From NCBI RefSeq assembly GCF_003334315.1, contig NZ_QOWR01000085.1: a stretch of DNA of 11,574 bases. The stretch is one strand, 5' to 3'. Made by a program: the position numbers and the translations under genes. The notes beneath the pieces are model-generated. The model was not told where the DNA came from, searched no databases, and was given only the letters and a program-made list of their open reading frames with translations. This DNA is from Escherichia coli. Its GTDB lineage: Bacteria > Pseudomonadota > Gammaproteobacteria > Enterobacterales > Enterobacteriaceae. The first letter of the stretch is position 1. Each line of letters starts with the position of its first letter. Positions 4,689-11,574 of this stretch are shown here, in pieces.

Positions 4689-4825
4689 AATCTTAACTAC
4701 AATATGATTCATTTTGATGATTGTTTCATAAGGAACAGTGAAGTAAGATCTAAGAGGAGTTAAATTTTATACAGTATAATCATAATATTGCAGCAAGGTG
4801 GTTATAATTGAAAGAATATTTAGAT

Positions 4826-6283
4826 ATGAATACATCTCATGTAAGAGTTGTTACTCATATGTGTGGGTTCCTGGTTTGGCTCTATAGTCTTTCAATGTTG
4901 CCACCAATGGTTGTAGCATTGTTTTATAAAGAAAAAAGCCTGTTCGTTTTCTTTATAACTTTCGTTATATTTTTTTGCATTGGTGGCGGAGCGTGGTATA
5001 CAACTAAGAAATCTGGCATTCAATTACGTACCCGTGATGGGTTTATTATAATTGTAATGTTTTGGATTTTGTTTTCTGTTATTAGTGCATTCCCTTTATG
5101 GATTGACTCAGAACTTAATTTAACGTTCATTGATGCTCTGTTTGAAGGGGTTTCTGGAATAACAACAACAGGAGCAACTGTAATTGATGATGTTAGTTCA
5201 TTACCTCGGGCATATTTGTACTATCGGTCACAGTTAAATTTTATAGGTGGTTTAGGAGTTATTGTTCTGGCGGTTGCTGTATTGCCATTATTGGGTATTG
5301 GTGGTGCAAAGCTTTATCAGTCAGAAATGCCGGGGCCATTTAAGGATGACAAACTCACTCCCCGCCTGGCCGATACGTCACGGACACTGTGGATAACTTA
5401 TTCTTTATTAGGTATTGCTTGTATTGTCTGTTATAGACTTGCAGGAATGCCTTTGTTTGATGCTATTTGTCACGGGATTTCCACAGTTTCGCTTGGTGGT
5501 TTCTCAACTCATAGCGAGAGTATCGGATATTTTAATAACTATTTGGTTGAGCTGGTGGCTGGTTCTTTTTCCCTGCTATCGGCTTTCAACTTCACTCTTT
5601 GGTATATTGTTATTAGCAGGAAAACGATAAAACCTTTAATCAGAGATATTGAACTTCGTTTCTTTCTGTTAATAGCCTTAGGGGTGATCATTGTTACCTC
5701 TTTCCAGGTCTGGCATATAGGTATGTATGACTTGCATGGAAGTTTTATTCATTCGTTTTTTCTTGCCAGCTCCATGCTCACTGATAATGGTTTAGCTACG
5801 CAGGATTATGCAAGTTGGCCCACGCACACGATAGTGTTTTTGCTGTTGTCAAGTTTCTTTGGGGGATGTATAGGTTCAACTTGTGGTGGAATTAAGTCAC
5901 TTCGATTTCTTATACTTTTCAAACAAAGCAAACACGAGATAAATCAGCTTTCTCATCCCAGAGCGTTGTTGAGTGTAAATGTAGGAGGGAAGATAGTTAC
6001 AGATCGTGTAATGAGGTCTGTATGGAGTTTCTTTTTTCTTTATACTCTCTTCACGGTGTTTTTTATACTGGTGTTAAATGGTATGGGATATGATTTTCTT
6101 ACATCATTTGCAACAGTGGCTGCATGTATTAATAATATGGGATTAGGTTTTGGGGCTACTGCATCGTCATTCGGAGTGCTTAATGACATTGCAAAATGTT
6201 TAATGTGCATAGCTATGATTCTTGGTCGCCTTGAAATTTATCCTGTTATTATATTGTTTTCAGGTTTTTTTTGGCGCTCCTAA
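4826..6283 (+). CDS. trkG: Trk-system potassium uptake membrane protein TrkG
   Basis: 485 aa from the ATG at 4826 (MNTSHVRVVTHMCGFLVWLYSL...), which I recognise as Rac-prophage TrkG. It is polytopic, with repeated selectivity-filter-like Gly motifs (TTTGAT, LGGFS, CGGIKS, NMGLGFG). Spot counts of three 60-nt lines at 4981-5160 gave 25-48% GC (mean about 37%), against 48% for one flank line (6601-6660). An upstream TTG at 4808 has a better RBS (AAGGTGG, 6-nt spacing) and would give 491 aa. Confidence 0.9.
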   Translation: MNTSHVRVVTHMCGFLVWLYSLSMLPPMVVALFYKEKSLFVFFITFVIFFCIGGGAWYTTKKSGIQLRTRDGFIIIVMFWILFSVISAFPLWIDSELNLTFIDALFEGVSGITTTGATVIDDVSSLPRAYLYYRSQLNFIGGLGVIVLAVAVLPLLGIGGAKLYQSEMPGPFKDDKLTPRLADTSRTLWITYSLLGIACIVCYRLAGMPLFDAICHGISTVSLGGFSTHSESIGYFNNYLVELVAGSFSLLSAFNFTLWYIVISRKTIKPLIRDIELRFFLLIALGVIIVTSFQVWHIGMYDLHGSFIHSFFLASSMLTDNGLATQDYASWPTHTIVFLLLSSFFGGCIGSTCGGIKSLRFLILFKQSKHEINQLSHPRALLSVNVGGKIVTDRVMRSVWSFFFLYTLFTVFFILVLNGMGYDFLTSFATVAACINNMGLGFGATASSFGVLNDIAKCLMCIAMILGRLEIYPVIILFSGFFWRS

Positions 6284-6420: not shown

Positions 6421-7212
6421 ATGAGCGAGAAATTAAAGATAGTCTATCGCCCATTACAAGAATTGTCACCGTATGCGCACAACGCCAGGACGCACAGCCC
6501 TGAGCAGGTGGCACAACTGGTAGAAAGTATTAAGCAATTCGGCTGGACTAATCCGGTGCTGATTGACGAAAAGGGCGAAATTATTGCGGGTCACGGTCGT
6601 GTTATGGCGGCTGAAATGCTCAAAATGGATTCTGTTCCGGTCATTGTTCTGTCTGGCCTGACGGATGAGCAGAAAAAGGCGTACCGCCTGGCAGATAATC
6701 GCCTGCCGATGAATGCTGGCTGGGATGAAGATCTGTTGCGGATGGAGCTGTCGGACCTAATCAATGCTGATTTTGATGTCTCCCTGACAGGCTTCATCCC
6801 GACAGAAATTGATGAACTGTTGACGGATGTTTTGCCCGGTACAGGAAATGAGGAGGAGCCGTATACGACGAAAATTGATACGCCTGTTTATGAGCCGTCG
6901 GGCGGTAAACCGGATATCAGTGAACTGTACGACGATACGAAAACTCAGGAGCTGATCAGCCGGATACGTTCGGCGTCCCTTGAGCCTGATATTGAGAAAT
7001 TCCTCCTGTGTGCGGCAGAACGTCACACGGTGTTTAATTTCAGCAGAATTGCGGACTATTACGCTCACGCCCCCTCTGAAATTCAGTGTTTTTTCGAGGA
7101 GTCGGCGCTGGTGATCATTGATTATCAGCAGGCTATTGAAAATGGATTTGTCCGGATGACGCAGCGCATGGTGGAGATCATGCATGGTGGTGAGGAGGAG
7201 GAATATGCGTGA
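6421..7212 (+). CDS. ParB N-terminal (ParB/Srx-like) domain protein with an uncharacterised acidic C-terminal domain
   Basis: 263 aa. The N-terminal ~95 aa (YRPLQELSPYAHNARTHSPEQVAQLVESIKQFGWTNPVLIDEKGEIIAGHGRVMAA) shows the ParB-N fold pattern, with a GHGR box where ParB has GERR. The linker GWDEDLL...DFDVSLTGF..EIDELL is as I recall it from phage and plasmid ParB-methyltransferase fusions, but no SAM-methyltransferase motifs follow. It is probably the full-length form of K-12 Rac ynaK (from memory). Confidence 0.75.
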   Translation: MSEKLKIVYRPLQELSPYAHNARTHSPEQVAQLVESIKQFGWTNPVLIDEKGEIIAGHGRVMAAEMLKMDSVPVIVLSGLTDEQKKAYRLADNRLPMNAGWDEDLLRMELSDLINADFDVSLTGFIPTEIDELLTDVLPGTGNEEEPYTTKIDTPVYEPSGGKPDISELYDDTKTQELISRIRSASLEPDIEKFLLCAAERHTVFNFSRIADYYAHAPSEIQCFFEESALVIIDYQQAIENGFVRMTQRMVEIMHGGEEEEYA

Positions 7213-8137
7213 TGATTTTTGCGCCTTTATTCTGACTCACGGGCGACCGGACAAAGTTCTGACTTACCGGACGTTGCGTCGTGCTGGCTATACCGGGAAA
7301 ATTTTTATCGTTGTTGATGATGAAGATAAGACACGGAATCAGTACATGGCTGAATTTGGTGAACAGGTGCTGGTGTTTTCCAAAGCCGATATCGCCAGTC
7401 GTTTTGACGAAGCCGATAATTTCTGTGACCGCCGCTCAATTTTTTACGCCCGTAATGCCTGTTTCGACCTGGCAAAACTGGTCGGGTGTAAATACTTCAT
7501 TCAGCTCGATGATGATTATCACGAGTTCCAGTTTCGGGTGGATCGCAACTATGACCAGGCCTATTTTCCGATAAGGAAACTGGATGCGATCCTTTCTGAA
7601 ATGCTGGCGTACTACGAATCAATACCTGCTCTTTCCATCGCTATGTCGCAGGGCGGGGATTTTCTTGGTGACAATGGCGGCCATGCTTCGTGGGTGAAAC
7701 GCAAGGCAATGAACAGCTTTATCTGTTCGGTTGATCGACCGTTCTCATTCATGGGGCGCATTAACGAGGATGTGAATACGTACACGAATCTCGGTCGCTG
7801 TGGTGAATTGTTTATGACGATCGGTGCTGTCCAGTTAGGGCAGAAACAGACGCAGAAAAACAGCGGCGGAATGACCGAGCTGTATCTGGATTCCGGAACC
7901 TACGTTAAAAGTTTTTACTCCGTCATGTATGCGCCGTCGTGCGTAAAAATCTCACTGATGGGTGCCAGCCATAAACGCATTCACCATCAGGTCACCTGGA
8001 ACAACGCTGCAGTAAAAATCCTTCACGAAAAATACAGGAAGAAGACACCCTGCATATCAATGGGGGTGACAAATGATTCCGTATTCGAAAGTCGAGTCTC
8101 TGGCAGCGTGCCGGATGACTGCACAACAAATCGCTGA
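7205..8137 (+). CDS. GT-A fold (GT2-like) glycosyltransferase-like protein, soluble
   Basis: The start is taken at the ATG at 7205 (RBS GAGGAGGAGGAAT), which overlaps the ParB-like stop (ATGCGTGA). Motifs occur in GT-A order: FILTHGRPD, IFIVVDDED, ARNACFDLAKLVGCKYFIQLDDDY (DxD) and NEDVNTY. No TM segment is present. The last ~20 codons overlap the next ORF. Confidence 0.6.
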   Translation: MRDDFCAFILTHGRPDKVLTYRTLRRAGYTGKIFIVVDDEDKTRNQYMAEFGEQVLVFSKADIASRFDEADNFCDRRSIFYARNACFDLAKLVGCKYFIQLDDDYHEFQFRVDRNYDQAYFPIRKLDAILSEMLAYYESIPALSIAMSQGGDFLGDNGGHASWVKRKAMNSFICSVDRPFSFMGRINEDVNTYTNLGRCGELFMTIGAVQLGQKQTQKNSGGMTELYLDSGTYVKSFYSVMYAPSCVKISLMGASHKRIHHQVTWNNAAVKILHEKYRKKTPCISMGVTNDSVFESRVSGSVPDDCTTNR

Positions 8138-8324
8138 CGTTCTGGATGTTGATCTGAACCGACTGAAAGAAAATCGGGAAGCAATGACAGATTTTTATGC
8201 GGCCATCCGTAAGGGCAGAGCGAAAGGTGAAGCCGAGTTACGAGCGGCATTGTTTAAGCTTGCCAGAAAAGGGGATGCCTTTGCTCTGCGCGAACTACTC
8301 AGGGTGGATAAAAATCAGGACTAA
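8073..8324 (+). CDS. Small helix-turn-helix protein, possibly packaging-associated (TerS N-domain-like)
   Basis: 83-aa ORF with RBS GGGGGTG. It has an HTH-like segment (MTAQQIADVLDVDLNRLK) followed by AIRKGRAKGEAELRAALFKLARKGD, a pattern I associate with small phage DNA-binding and terminase-accessory proteins. The start is uncertain; an alternative ATG lies at 8115. Confidence 0.5.
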   Translation: MIPYSKVESLAACRMTAQQIADVLDVDLNRLKENREAMTDFYAAIRKGRAKGEAELRAALFKLARKGDAFALRELLRVDKNQD

Positions 8325-8327
8325 CTG

Positions 8328-9422
8328 ATGAGCAGACCGGACTGGGGGGCGTTGCAGCAGGAGTATATTGCTGAATACACCCGCTCCGGTATATCTCCGG
8401 TGGCATGGTGTGAAGCAAGGGGACTGAATTACGCAACAGCCCGTCGTTACATCAAAAAAACTCCGAAAAATGCGCAGACAGAAATGTGCAAAACTGCGCA
8501 AAAAAGTGCGCAGAAAAAATCTGCGCAGACTGCACAAAAGCGGAACGAAAAATCTCAGGAAAAAAAGCCAGTATTCGATGCGGGCCTGAATGAGGGCGAC
8601 GCGGAGGAATTTTCGTTCTGTCCCGATGAATTCGGCATTTCTGACCAGCAGGCTAAGTTTGCGATGCTTGTTGCTCAGGGTAAAAAGCCGACAGAGGCGT
8701 ACCGACTAGCCGGTTATGAGGGGCAAGGTGCGACAGCTAACAGCAACGCCAGTCGTATGCTTAGAAATGCCAGGGTTTTTCGCGCTATCAGCTACTTCCG
8801 CAATCAGTACCAGAAACGCTATACCGCAGACCTGGATTTACTAGTGAGTCAGTTGATGGCTATTGTCCTGGCCGACCCCAATCAGCTTGCACAATTTCGC
8901 CGTGTTAACTGCCGTTATTGCTGGGGCGAGAATCATCTCTACCAGTGGCGCGATATAGCAGAATTCGACAAGGCAGCGGCGCAGGCTTCCAGAGATGGCA
9001 AACCCGAACCGGAATATGGAGGCCTCGGCTTTGTTGATAACGCCATACCCAATCCGGACTGCCCGAAGTGCTGCGGTGAGGGAACGGGACAGCTTTATAT
9101 GGCTGATACCACTCTGCTTGATGGGGATGCGCGGCAATTATATGCAGGGGCAAAATTCGGAAAATTCGGCGTTGAGATCCTGCTGGAGGATAAGGCTGCC
9201 GCCCGGCGTGAATTGTTGCGTTTGTTTTCTGCTGGCGGGGCTTTATGTGCAGATAAACGGCTACAGGAACTGGAAATTGAACGGCGCAGAATGGAAAACC
9301 AGAAGCTGCGCAAAGAGATCGAAACGGTGGAAGATAATGAACATCCCCAGCCTGTGGCGATCAATATTAATGTGGTTGATGCCAGAGTAAGGAGTGATGA
9401 AGATGATCTCTCCGACGCTTAA
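8328..9422 (+). CDS. Terminase small subunit (Terminase_2 / P27-like core) with extra N-terminal HTH and a Cys4 insert
   Basis: 364 aa. The core FGISDQQAKFAMLVAQGKKPTEAYRLAGYEG...NASRMLRNARV is the typical TerS HTH region. Upstream lie a second HTH-like segment (GISPVAWCEARGLNYATARRYIKK) and a K/Q/A-rich repeat. CRYC (residues 198-201) and CPKC (residues 246-249) lie 44 aa apart. The gene lies directly upstream of TerL and overlaps it. Confidence 0.75.
   Translation: MSRPDWGALQQEYIAEYTRSGISPVAWCEARGLNYATARRYIKKTPKNAQTEMCKTAQKSAQKKSAQTAQKRNEKSQEKKPVFDAGLNEGDAEEFSFCPDEFGISDQQAKFAMLVAQGKKPTEAYRLAGYEGQGATANSNASRMLRNARVFRAISYFRNQYQKRYTADLDLLVSQLMAIVLADPNQLAQFRRVNCRYCWGENHLYQWRDIAEFDKAAAQASRDGKPEPEYGGLGFVDNAIPNPDCPKCCGEGTGQLYMADTTLLDGDARQLYAGAKFGKFGVEILLEDKAAARRELLRLFSAGGALCADKRLQELEIERRRMENQKLRKEIETVEDNEHPQPVAININVVDARVRSDEDDLSDA
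8471..8536 (+). repeat. Array of six TGCGCA-type palindromic hexamers inside terS
   Basis: TGCGCA occurs at 8471, 8495, 8507 and 8522. One-mismatch copies are TGTGCA at 8485 and TGCACA at 8531. Each is followed by (G/A)A, and spacings are 9-15 bp. Confidence 0.6.
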
Positions 9423-10704
9423 TGTGCCTCAGGCGCGATTTCTTTCAATGCCCCATAAATTTAAAGCCTATATTGCTGGTTTTGGCTCGGGCAAAATATG
9501 GGTTGGGTGTGGCGGCATATGCAAGGGGATTTGGGAGCATCCAGGTATAAATCAGGGATATTTTGCGCCAACGTATCCCCAAATTCGCGATATTTTTTAC
9601 CCTACAGTGGAAGAAGTTGCTGCTGACTGGGGATTGAACGTAAAAATTAATGAGGGAAATAAAGAGGTTCACTTTTATTACGGACGCCAGTATCGGGGAA
9701 CCACTATCTGCAGATCGATGGAGAAGCCACAAACGATCGTCGGTTTCAAAATTGGTAATGCGTTGGTGGATGAACTGGACATTTTGCCGAAGGAAAAAGC
9801 CAGAACGGCGTGGCGCAAGATAATTGCACGTATGCGTTATAAGATTGATGGACTTCGCAACGGTATTGACGTTACAACCACGCCGGAAGGATTCAAATTT
9901 GTCTACGAGCAGTTTGTTAAAGCCGTGCGTGAAAAAACAGAGCTGGCCTCACTGTATGGTCTGGTGCAGGCATCTACTTTCGATAATGAAAAGAACCTGC
10001 CAGCAGATTACATTCCTTCGCTTCTTGAATCATACCCTCCAGAGCTGATTAAAGCCTATCTTCGAGGACAGTTTACTAACCTGACAAGTGGTACTGTTTA
10101 CCATCAGTTTGACCGGAAACTGAATAATTGCGAAGAAGTGGAGCAGCCAGGGGAGCCGATTTATATTGGGATGGATTTTAACGTTGGAAAGATGGCGGGA
10201 ATCGTCCATGTGCTGCGTTTGGGGCTTCCATGTGCGGTAACTGAAATCATCAATGCCTACGATACGCCGGATATGATCCGCATCATTAAAGAACGCTTCT
10301 GGCTGTATGATGGGAATGATTACCGGAAAGTGAGGGAAATTTATATTTATCCAGATGCTTCCGGGGATTCCAGAAAATCAAGTAACGCAAGTACGACGGA
10401 TATAGCCCAGCTTAAGCAGGCTGGTTTTAACGTTGTGGTGAACAGCTCGAACCCGCCAGTAAAAGATCGCGTTAACTCAATGAATGCAATGTTCTGCAAT
10501 GCCAATGGTGAGCGTCGCTATAAAGTTAATGTGAAGCGTTGCCCGTTATATGCCGAATCTCTGGAGCAACAGGTCTGGGATGAGAAGGGGGAGCCTGATA
10601 AAAAATCTGGCAATGATCACCCGAATGATGCCGGAGGTTATTTCATCGTTAAGCAATTCCCTATTGTCAAACCGACCGGAAGAGTCACATCACTTCGGAT
10701 TTAA
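9403..10704 (+). CDS. Terminase large subunit
   Basis: Walker A AGFGSGKI, Walker B ALVDELD, and RNaseH-like nuclease Asp motifs (IGMDFNVG, YPDASGD, NDHPNDAGGY). The start is chosen at the ATG at 9403, 8 nt after AGGAG. ATG 9397 and GTG 9394 are alternatives. The gene overlaps the TerS stop at 9422. Confidence 0.85.
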   Translation: MISPTLNVPQARFLSMPHKFKAYIAGFGSGKIWVGCGGICKGIWEHPGINQGYFAPTYPQIRDIFYPTVEEVAADWGLNVKINEGNKEVHFYYGRQYRGTTICRSMEKPQTIVGFKIGNALVDELDILPKEKARTAWRKIIARMRYKIDGLRNGIDVTTTPEGFKFVYEQFVKAVREKTELASLYGLVQASTFDNEKNLPADYIPSLLESYPPELIKAYLRGQFTNLTSGTVYHQFDRKLNNCEEVEQPGEPIYIGMDFNVGKMAGIVHVLRLGLPCAVTEIINAYDTPDMIRIIKERFWLYDGNDYRKVREIYIYPDASGDSRKSSNASTTDIAQLKQAGFNVVVNSSNPPVKDRVNSMNAMFCNANGERRYKVNVKRCPLYAESLEQQVWDEKGEPDKKSGNDHPNDAGGYFIVKQFPIVKPTGRVTSLRI

Positions 10705-10706
10705 TT

Positions 10707-11126
10707 ATGGCTGATATATCAACACCCAACCTCGACTATAACGATATGCTGGAGGCGTGGGATATTAACGACGCACTGATGGGCGGTACGCTTGAAATGC
10801 GCAGGCAGGGGGAAAATTATCTCCCAAAATGGCCTAACGAAGATGAAGACGCTTATAAAAAACGCCTGTCTGTGGCTACGCTACTTCCTGTGTATGAAGA
10901 AAGCATCAAGCAAAATATTGGGCGCATATTTGCAGAGCCGACAGTATTGAGTGAGGAAACGCCGGCAAAAATCAGGGAATATGCAGAAAATATCGACATG
11001 GAGGGGAGCCGACTGGATGTGTGGGCGCAGCAATTTTTCAGCCTCGCATTTCAGTATGGTGTGGCACATGCGCTGGTGGACTACCCACGAACGGATATGA
11101 AAGAGATTCGTACAAAAGCCGGGTAA
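10707..11126 (+). pseudogene. Portal protein gene (DUF4055-like N-terminus), truncated by IS1 insertion
   Basis: The ORF starts 3 nt after TerL. Its N-terminal pattern (G..YLPKWPNE....Y..RL..A.L...YE.....IGRIF..P) resembles DUF4055-type portals as recalled. Only 139 codons remain, and the stop TAA (11124-11126) lies inside the IS1 terminal repeat GGTAATG. Native sequence ends at 11121. Confidence 0.6.
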
Positions 11127-11574
11127 TGACTCCAACTTATTGATAGTGTTTTATGTTCAGATAATGCCCGATGACTTTGTCATGCAGCTCCACCGATTTT
11201 GAGAACGACAGCGACTTCCGTCCCAGCCGTGCCAGGTGCTGCCTCAGATTCAGGTTATGCCGCTCAATTCGCTGCGTATATCGCTTGCTGATTACGTGCA
11301 GCTTTCCCTTCAGGCGGGATTCATACAGCGGCCAGCCATCCGTCATCCATATCACCACGTCAAAGGGTGACAGCAGGCTCATAAGACGCCCCAGCGTCGC
11401 CATAGTGCGTTCACCGAATACGTGCGCAACAACCGTCTTCCGGAGACTGTCATACGCGTAAAACAGCCAGCGCTGGCGCGATTTAGCCCCGACATAGCCC
11501 CACTGTTCGTCCATTTCCGCGCAGACGATGACGTCACTGCCCGGCTGTATGCGCGAGGTTACCGACTGCGGCCT
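11122..11574 (-). mobile_element. IS1 insertion sequence, partial (continues past the right edge)
   Basis: From 11122 the sequence matches IS1 read from its insB-proximal end (GGTAATGACTCCAACTTATTGATAGTGTTTTATGTTCAGATAATGCCCGATGAC...), as I remember it. The 23-bp terminal inverted repeat is at 11122-11144. The window ends just before the A6C frameshift site. Confidence 0.95.
11137..11574 (-). CDS. insB: IS1 transposase InsB reading frame (C-terminal 145 codons; 5' end outside the window)
   Basis: The reverse-strand translation reads [42 protein letters not shown]...HYLNIKHYQ*, identical to my memory of InsB. The frame stays open to the window edge. Confidence 0.9.

Follow-up and report, generated by a model that had tools for sequence, protein, structure and literature searches.

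A hexamer array within the small-terminase gene of a Rac-type Escherichia coli prophage is a candidate pac site of the P1 type

The 11,574-nucleotide stretch of Escherichia coli DNA analyzed here (contig NZ_QOWR01000085.1; referred to as the window) is the late region of a defective Rac-type prophage. Its small-terminase gene, terS, carries an array of six palindromic hexamers of the TGCGCA type. This array probably serves for recognition in a headful packaging (pac) site like that of phage P1, where it would be bound by an extra helix-turn-helix (HTH) module that comprises residues 1–44 of TerS. The initial annotation, made from the sequence alone, had proposed the array as a recognition or pac candidate for TerS. 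This proposal is supported by the reading frames of the hexamers, by the fixation of synonymous positions, by a switch of specificity at residue 39 and by homology to P1 PacA; that packaging starts at the array is what we infer.

Four perfect and two one-mismatch copies of the hexamer, each followed by GA or AA, are found by reading of the sequence and by pattern search at the starts previously assigned to them. They occupy codons 48–70 of terS, corresponding to the start of the linker that follows the HTH. Five of the six are read as xxT-GCG/GCA-CAx (X-A-Q) and hexamer 2 is read in a different frame. There are nine perfect TGCGCA copies in the whole window, four of which are located in the array, and the next one downstream is at 9307. 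In 2,000 dinucleotide-preserving shuffles of the window, four perfect copies never occurred within any 66-bp span (maximum three); six copies with at most one mismatch occurred in three shuffles. Near-identical DNA is present in ten records of induced phages and 305 complete genomes of E. coli; the E. coli phages vB_EcoS-606R9 and -473R12 are 99.7% identical to the window in this region. Individual Rac-type prophages have four, five or six perfect hexamers, while all six are perfect in the consensus of 29 distinct sequences. With four, the window falls at the bottom of this range, and its array is slightly eroded.

The spacers between the hexamers are rich in A-tracts. Tracts of four or more A occur 3.8 times per 130 nt in arrays compared to 0.6 times in controls. 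Their spacing has a weak peak near 12 nt, and a test of A-tract phasing found no 10.5-nt peak in the arrays. Many database open reading frames (ORFs) of 77–91 residues (P0001–P0034, e.g. P0001 and P0033) are terS genes frameshifted at the A-runs in the region corresponding to 8500–8567 of the window. These frameshifts at A6–A8 runs could be sequencing errors or real slippage.

The N-terminal module is represented by 190 clusters among 1.84 billion proteins. For comparison, terS loci sharing the module were taken from phage records, from species-representative genomes (80 loci) and from IMG/VR (80 loci). The resulting 110 distinct 5' ends and one added locus (111 in total) form 57 clusters at 85% nucleotide identity, from Escherichia, Klebsiella, Enterobacter, Citrobacter, Serratia, Proteus, Providencia, Pantoea, Tatumella, Xenorhabdus, Yersinia and Aeromonas. 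These non-redundant loci are divided into 38 of an Arg class (A-R-R-Y-I-K) and 19 of a Lys class (A-K-R-Y-I-K). When homologues were searched with the N-terminal 53 residues, most of the matches were frameshifted fragments, hardly useful for alignment. Independently of the module, IMG/VR was scanned in an unbiased manner for three close TGCGCA copies. In 73 of the 120 loci obtained, the module is encoded directly upstream. The 47 loci scored as lacking it include no clear case of an array outside terS, as might be found in satellites. Two of them have a terS truncated by the contig end, one is truncated at the HTH and one has another HTH type; the remainder are mostly tandem coding repeats or unrelated intergenic repeats.

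As an alternative, the initial annotation had considered that the DNA repeat merely follows from selection on an (S/T)AQK peptide repeat serving as a flexible linker. A linker predicted to be disordered is indeed encoded here (residues 45–94 of the AlphaFold model have a predicted local distance difference test score, pLDDT, below 50). Additionally, Tandem Repeats Finder reports a 36-nt period with 2.1 copies in the array, so that part of it could stem from duplication. The comparison of the loci points in the opposite direction. In the 38 Arg-class loci the density of TGCGCA is 43 per kb at nucleotides +100 to +199 of terS and about 0.3 per kb elsewhere within 2 kb on either side; the Lys-class motif described below has a density of 42 per kb in the same bin. 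Arg-class loci have 3–9 copies (mean 5.05), and their number, spacing and order vary freely. All three reading frames are used: 141 copies are read as xxT-GCG-CAx, 39 as xTG-CGC-Axx and 12 as TGC-GCA (C-A). In the first frame the residue preceding Ala is T, S, N, A, P, I, D, F, G, R or C, and Gln and His interchange; copies in the second frame are read as LRT, VRK, LRK, MRN and others. In total, the hexamer is kept under at least 28 different tri- or dipeptides, and the six copies in a single Klebsiella phage gene (L004) use all three frames. The peptide at hexamer 2 changes from M-C-K in the window to M-R-K or V-R-K in relatives, while the DNA is never more than one base away from TGCGCA.

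Codon choice is restricted accordingly. The tripeptide X-A-[QH] is spelled xxT-GCG in 89% of cases in the array but in 21% elsewhere in the same loci (p = 6e-48). Similarly, [LMV]-R-x is spelled xTG-CGC-A in 98% of cases in the array and in 26% in controls, and X-A-N is spelled xxT-GCG-AAT in 92% of cases in Lys-class arrays and in 5% in controls. These computations show that selection acts on the DNA of the hexamers and not on the encoded peptide; conservation as DNA where the peptide diverges, which had been put forward as a check, is what the loci display. The AQK- and Lys-rich peptide is the in-frame reading of hexamers and A-runs. Because of the three reading frames, the varied peptides and the fixed synonymous positions, the (S/T)AQK repeat is a by-product of a DNA signal superimposed on a linker in which nearly any sequence is tolerated. 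The array is also a clean example of dual coding, with the protein sequence of a disordered linker imposed by the DNA.

The hexamer motif co-varies with a single residue of the N-terminal module. With one exception, discussed below, the Arg39 loci (37 of 38) contain only TGCGCA. All 19 Lys39 loci contain only TGCGAAT or its inverse ATTCGCA, in 2–6 copies at the equivalent place, and no TGCGCA. The Lys class is represented by, for example, Yersinia phage vB_YenM_29.18. The inverted copies of this class number 35, and in 31 cases fusion yields the palindrome TGCGAATTCGCA; such copies cannot arise from a peptide repeat. Furthermore, a peptide repeat does not account for a motif that tracks a residue in a different domain. 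Unrelated peptides (LRT, VRK, MRN, CA, xAQ, xAH) under one hexamer and synonymous positions fixed far above the controls complete this picture, and the peptide repeat is hardly credible as the origin of the DNA repeat. Causality runs the opposite way.

It is base pair 5 that distinguishes the two motifs (TGCG-C-A versus TGCG-A-A), and column 39 alone of the 44-residue module separates the two motif classes. In a neighbor-joining tree of the module DNA without codon 39, at least nine switches between Arg and Lys are needed. For several modules of the Lys class, the nearest module is one of the Arg class; L007, for example, is 92.9% identical to L039. TerS cores were grouped at no less than 40% identity and 70% coverage, as looser single-linkage thresholds merged everything. 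Both motif classes are present in three of the four multi-member groups. The TerS of PhiR12_3 is 75% identical to that of 933W, yet it combines ARRYIK with seven TGCGCA, compared to ARTRIK with four (C/T)GATCAT in 933W. By these computations the motif follows the class of the HTH and not the attached TerS core. The simplest reading is that the N-terminal HTH binds the hexamers directly and that residue 39 of its recognition helix contacts base pair 5. The earlier view of TerS as the reader needs a correction: the likely reader within TerS is the extra HTH, the module with which the motif co-varies, and not the Terminase_2 core.

In the AlphaFold model, the module has helices at residues 6–20, 24–30 and 35–38 (pLDDT 65–79), and residue 39 is placed at or just beyond the start of helix 3. 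This residue is presumably the variable position before the conserved Arg-aromatic pair of the HTH_23/IS-type motif (S-x-x-T-V-x-R-W). The module resembles an IS66-TnpA-like HTH (E 4e-4); a Pfam search with the N-terminal 53 residues gave no significant family. Two database proteins, P0185 (565 residues) and P0235 (304 residues), consist of six to seven tandem copies of a related HTH module (...SGKS..WCEE.GI....F..) and resemble the IS66 TnpA accessory protein.

The closest characterized counterpart is P1 PacA. Residues 6–80 of TerS match the PacA family phrog_1711 (E 3.8e-5); only the N-terminal module contributes to this match, the rest of the protein being Terminase_2. P1 PacA and 933W TerS both match phrog_370. 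In a pairwise BLASTP alignment, ...GLNYATARRYIKK of TerS is aligned with ..NLNPNTARRYLRAF of PacA (E 0.002). These matches indicate that the module is homologous to the N-terminus of PacA. The pac site of P1 consists of seven TGATCA/G repeats that carry Dam sites, and synonymous recoding of the repeats lowers the P1 titer about nine-fold (PMC10028697). In the annotated P1 genome, TGATC[AG] hexamers are found at nucleotides +194, +201, +213 and +228 and at +324, +336, +347 and +375 of pacA, in two frames. They correspond to codons 65–76 and 108–125 and follow an HTH at residues 7–44. The mapped cleavage sites (+276 to +285) lie between the two clusters and adjoin a site for integration host factor (IHF). 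In the P1 relative Cronobacter phage JK004, TGATCA is kept under another peptide (N/R-D-Q instead of I-D-H/G-D-H).

Both sites are thus located inside the small-terminase gene, directly 3' of the region coding for an N-terminal HTH (ATARRYIKK in the window, NTARRYLRAF in PacA). Both are arrays of palindromic TGNNCA hexamers with irregular spacing (7–16 bp) in more than one reading frame, and in both the hexamers are kept while the peptide drifts, as JK004 illustrates. On the other hand, the center of the hexamer is CG in the window and AT in P1, and the array starts at codon 48 instead of codon 65. The core of the window TerS is Terminase_2 and not PacA, and its large subunit, TerL, is of the Terminase_6N/6C type and not PacB. 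A bipartite layout like that of P1 is found in Klebsiella-type genes (L004, L017, L028, L056 and others), where a second cluster of two or three TGCGCA at +347 to +400 of terS, about 150 bp beyond the first, is read as VAQAIAQQQ. This second cluster is absent from L019 and L043 despite the same VAQAIAQQQ peptide. In position and architecture, the array of the window therefore corresponds to the hexamer clusters of P1.

Several observations weigh against the assignment as a P1-type pac site. The similarity of TerS to PacA is weak (25% identity, E 0.002). P1 PacA also has A-R-R-Y but uses TGATCA; residue 39 is therefore not the sole determinant of specificity and acts as such only within the closer family. 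TGCGCA contains no GATC, so the Dam control of P1 cannot apply to the window array. The window has one cluster of six hexamers, compared to clusters of four and three copies (HEX4 and HEX3) flanking the cut in P1, and no second cluster was found in the window or in other Rac-type genes. No IHF-like consensus WATCARNNNNTTR is present on either strand between 8300 and 9000, although such a consensus scan cannot exclude binding. The exception among the Arg-class loci, L084, has a truncated ORF and no array. Among the 29 close Rac-type sequences, polymorphism does not differ between hexamer columns (0.039) and spacer columns (0.049). This variability fits tolerated degenerate copies, comparable to TGATCG in P1, or decay in defective prophages. 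The AlphaFold model of TerS is of low confidence (mean pLDDT 50) and poor outside residues 1–44 and 100–180, with an incomplete assignment of helix 3 of the HTH; the underlying alignment was shallow, as the best 120 of 1829 full-protein matches were all more than 80% identical. Finally, a search of the open-access literature yielded no binding, cleavage or virion-end data for any member of the family. It also returned no paper describing a TGCGCA array or pac site or a rule linking an HTH to an adjacent array, no mapping of a Rac pac site and no termini of Yersinia phages.

The co-variation with the HTH of TerS demonstrates recognition but not its purpose. Accordingly, the array might be an operator at which TerS or another HTH protein regulates late transcription, translation or the timing of terminase expression. 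In favor of such a role, pairs of hexamers together with A-runs mimic terminators on the minus strand. A scan for sigma-70 promoters, however, found no promoter-like site near the array. In every case the module is fused to a small terminase, and at least four different cores are represented; the homologous module and array of P1 constitute an experimentally defined pac site. The only conserved neighbor, an 83-residue ORF upstream of terS, is present in merely 6 of the 57 loci. An operator without a role in packaging is thus rather unlikely.

The initial annotation had called the product of this ORF an HTH protein and named it for binding tests. As a general binding partner it is rejected because of its presence in 6 of 57 loci. 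Its match to phrog_309, another small-terminase family, is confined to the middle of that family (positions 145–218 of 319). The ORF is therefore a real small gene in phages of the Rac type, though one that does not universally accompany the array.

Since the hexamers are self-complementary, the element could alternatively act as RNA by folding the terS mRNA and modulating its translation or stability. The RNA of 8455–8550 has a predicted folding energy of -29.8 kcal/mol (z = -5.5), and none of 200 shuffled sequences was as stable. On the minus strand, hexamer pairs followed by T-runs at 8527–8507 and 8538–8520 score as hairpins similar to intrinsic terminators. Both the RNA folding and the terminator-like hairpins are taken to result from palindromes that adjoin A-runs, and any set of palindromes would fold in this way. 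Moreover, an RNA helix would tolerate compensatory changes, but the hexamer is unchanged across genera from Escherichia to Aeromonas. The motif switches only along with a protein residue, and copy number, spacing and order are free to vary. A function as RNA is very unlikely in view of these points.

It is also highly improbable that the repeats are mainly substrates of recombination or slippage with no role in binding, either as microhomology for exchanges between HTH and core or as unstable repeats. Copy numbers of 3 to 9 and the many database ORFs frameshifted inside the array are in line with this idea. Furthermore, the fusion annotated as 'gpO-terS' in Rac-SA53, which arose by deletion, is joined at hexamer 2, where nucleotide homology to the window begins. 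But this would leave unexplained the parallel with P1, the encoding in three frames and the precise motif with its strict coupling to residue 39. Exchange of modules at the array is more plausibly an effect of the array, and arrays may serve as junctions of module exchange. The junction of Rac-SA53 (L001, 2500–2512) corresponds to 8480–8490 of the window.

The assignment as the recognition part of a headful pac site is therefore preferred. For physical binding, oligomer geometry, cutting and packaging direction we infer the following course. TerS would form a ring via its Terminase_2 core, with each subunit presenting its HTH on a disordered, Lys-rich tether of about 50 residues. Several of these HTHs could occupy five to six TGCGCA sites over about 65 bp, with A-tracts in between, so that phage DNA would be captured specifically and multivalently. 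Base pair 5 would be read by residue 39 of the recognition helix, with Arg selecting TGCGCA and Lys selecting TGCGAA(T). TerL, the nuclease/ATPase partner, would then be recruited and cut nearby, and headful packaging would start.

Comparison with other terminase systems helps to delimit this model. The core of the window TerS belongs to the same Pfam family (Terminase_2) as G1P of SPP1 and SF6. The pac site of SPP1/SF6-type phages overlaps terS and consists of short repeats with A-tract-rich, probably bent DNA. The window array likewise overlaps terS, is made up of short repeats and is enriched in A-tracts. In SPP1, the HTH of the family itself reads pac with little sequence specificity, according to one report (PMC4737164). 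The window TerS differs in that it also has an unrelated HTH at its N-terminus, and the motif co-varies with this module and not with the core. As in P22 and Sf6, the small-terminase gene that contains the site belongs to a lambdoid headful phage. In P22 and Sf6, however, pac is one asymmetric sequence of about 22 bp, located in gene 3 or gene 1, instead of repeated palindromic hexamers, and their TerS family differs from that of the window.

A further system is the TerS of 933W and other Shiga toxin (Stx) phages (phrog_370). It has the same N-terminal module (42% identity), and an array follows immediately in the linker-coding DNA. It differs in the recognition helix (ARTRIK) and in the array, which consists of four (C/T)GATCAT encoding I/T-D-H, each with a Dam site, and two TGCGCA. 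In the 933W-type terS of Stx2 phage 86, the array is located at 2130–2180 of locus L169. By analogy with P1, the 933W-type array is a predicted and apparently undescribed pac candidate for Stx phages; the search of the open-access literature revealed no published mapping of a 933W pac site. A second, unrelated type of N-terminal HTH (..RKRAKKFDW or ..RKRIASGGW) is likewise followed by its own short-repeat arrays. Arrays of the RKRAKKFDW type are composed of seven GTACGCA with inverted GCGTACC in Klebsiella phage Chronis, of GTTTCCAC/GTGGAAAC in pPE4 and of six TGCGCA in L179. Arrays that accompany this second HTH type are located at L172 720–860, L002 2330–2410 and L179 2090–2160.

Apart from the N-terminal module, TerS of the window is identified as a small terminase by family matches. 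Residues 122–321 match Pfam Terminase_2 above the gathering score (34.5 bits, cut-off 26.1), the protein matches phrog_51 (E 1.7e-75), and terS is annotated as 'terminase small subunit' in identical E. coli prophages. A weak match (E 0.23) connects residues 108–158 with the solved structure of the Pam5 small terminase. The Terminase_2 core carries an HTH of its own, which is distinct from the extra N-terminal one. Between trkG and terS, a ParB_N-domain protein and a TET-associated glycosyltransferase (TAGT) are encoded, which may form a DNA-modification module. Fusions of TAGT and TerS occur among database ORFs (P0072 and P0080; 565 residues). Relatives of the prophage have P22-like capsid genes. 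In the window the portal gene is cut by IS1 (Table 1). Because its portal is destroyed, the prophage is unable to package DNA alone, and the array could act only with the aid of a helper phage.

Table 1. Location of the hexamer array, the terS gene and neighboring features in the window (a dot denotes features without strand).
Feature	Position	Strand	Remarks
trkG	4808–6283		
ParB_N-domain protein	6421–7212		between trkG and terS
TAGT glycosyltransferase (PF20691)	7184–8137		between trkG and terS; E 8e-35
83-residue ORF	8073–8324		directly 5' of terS
terS	8328–9422	+	364 residues; extra N-terminal HTH, disordered Lys-rich linker, Terminase_2 core with CxxC...CxxC insertion
N-terminal HTH module, coding region	8328–8459	+	MSRPDWG...WCEARGLNYATARRYIKK; residues 1–44; proposed reader of the hexamers
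Codon 39 (CGT, Arg)	8442–8444	+	sole module position tracking the motif: Arg with TGCGCA, Lys with TGCGAAT
A-tract-rich spacers between hexamers	8455–8567	.	in frame, encode Lys residues of the linker
Disordered linker, coding region	8460–8609	+	residues 45–94; joins N-terminal HTH to Terminase_2 core; peptide not conserved among relatives
Hexamer 1, TGCGCA	8471–8476	.	aaT GCG CAg; N-A-Q
Hexamer 2, TGTGCA	8485–8490	.	aTG TGC Aaa; M-C-K, other reading frame; perfect TGCGCA (M/V-R-K) in most relatives
Hexamer 3, TGCGCA	8495–8500	.	acT GCG CAa; T-A-Q
Hexamer 4, TGCGCA	8507–8512	.	agT GCG CAg; S-A-Q
Hexamer 5, TGCGCA	8522–8527	.	tcT GCG CAg; S-A-Q
Hexamer 6, TGCACA	8531–8536	.	acT GCA CAa; T-A-Q; perfect TGCGCA in many relatives
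terL	9394–10704	+	436 residues; Pfam Terminase_6N (E 9.5e-31) and Terminase_6C (E 3.4e-10)
Portal gene fragment (phrog_145)	10707–11126		first 139 codons only; adjoins IS1
IS1 transposase gene	11137–11514	-	cuts the portal gene

There is perhaps an even chance that the HTH module and its own array constitute a portable specificity cassette of about 200–250 bp that moves between unrelated TerS cores. In such a cassette a trans-acting reader and its cis-acting site would be encoded back to back, the site being placed within the linker of the reader itself, and for this reason the cassette would move as a unit. A few residues would set the specificity: Arg39 for TGCGCA, Lys39 for TGCGAAT and ARTRIK for GATCAT, with TGATCA in P1.

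To our knowledge, pac sites are known in only a handful of phages, usually from experiment. The sequence rule described here, an N-terminal HTH followed by an array in the DNA of its own linker, predicts the recognition site in 57 non-redundant loci and ties these predicted sites to the classical pac site of P1. Additionally, it offers a switch of specificity, one residue for one base pair, that is open to direct testing. The consequences for the window itself are modest, as the prophage is defective and its array slightly decayed. If the proposed cassette is real, pac sites and packaging specificity would be readable from the sequence in many prophages of Enterobacterales, Aeromonas and Vibrio, including those of the 933W-type Stx phages. 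The GATC arrays of Stx phages would then imply a Dam-gated packaging like that of P1, and specificity could be re-programmed by one substitution together with recoding of the array. Such a rule may be used to predict which prophages package which DNA, in generalized or lateral transduction and in the mobilization of satellites, and to design phagemids for delivery.

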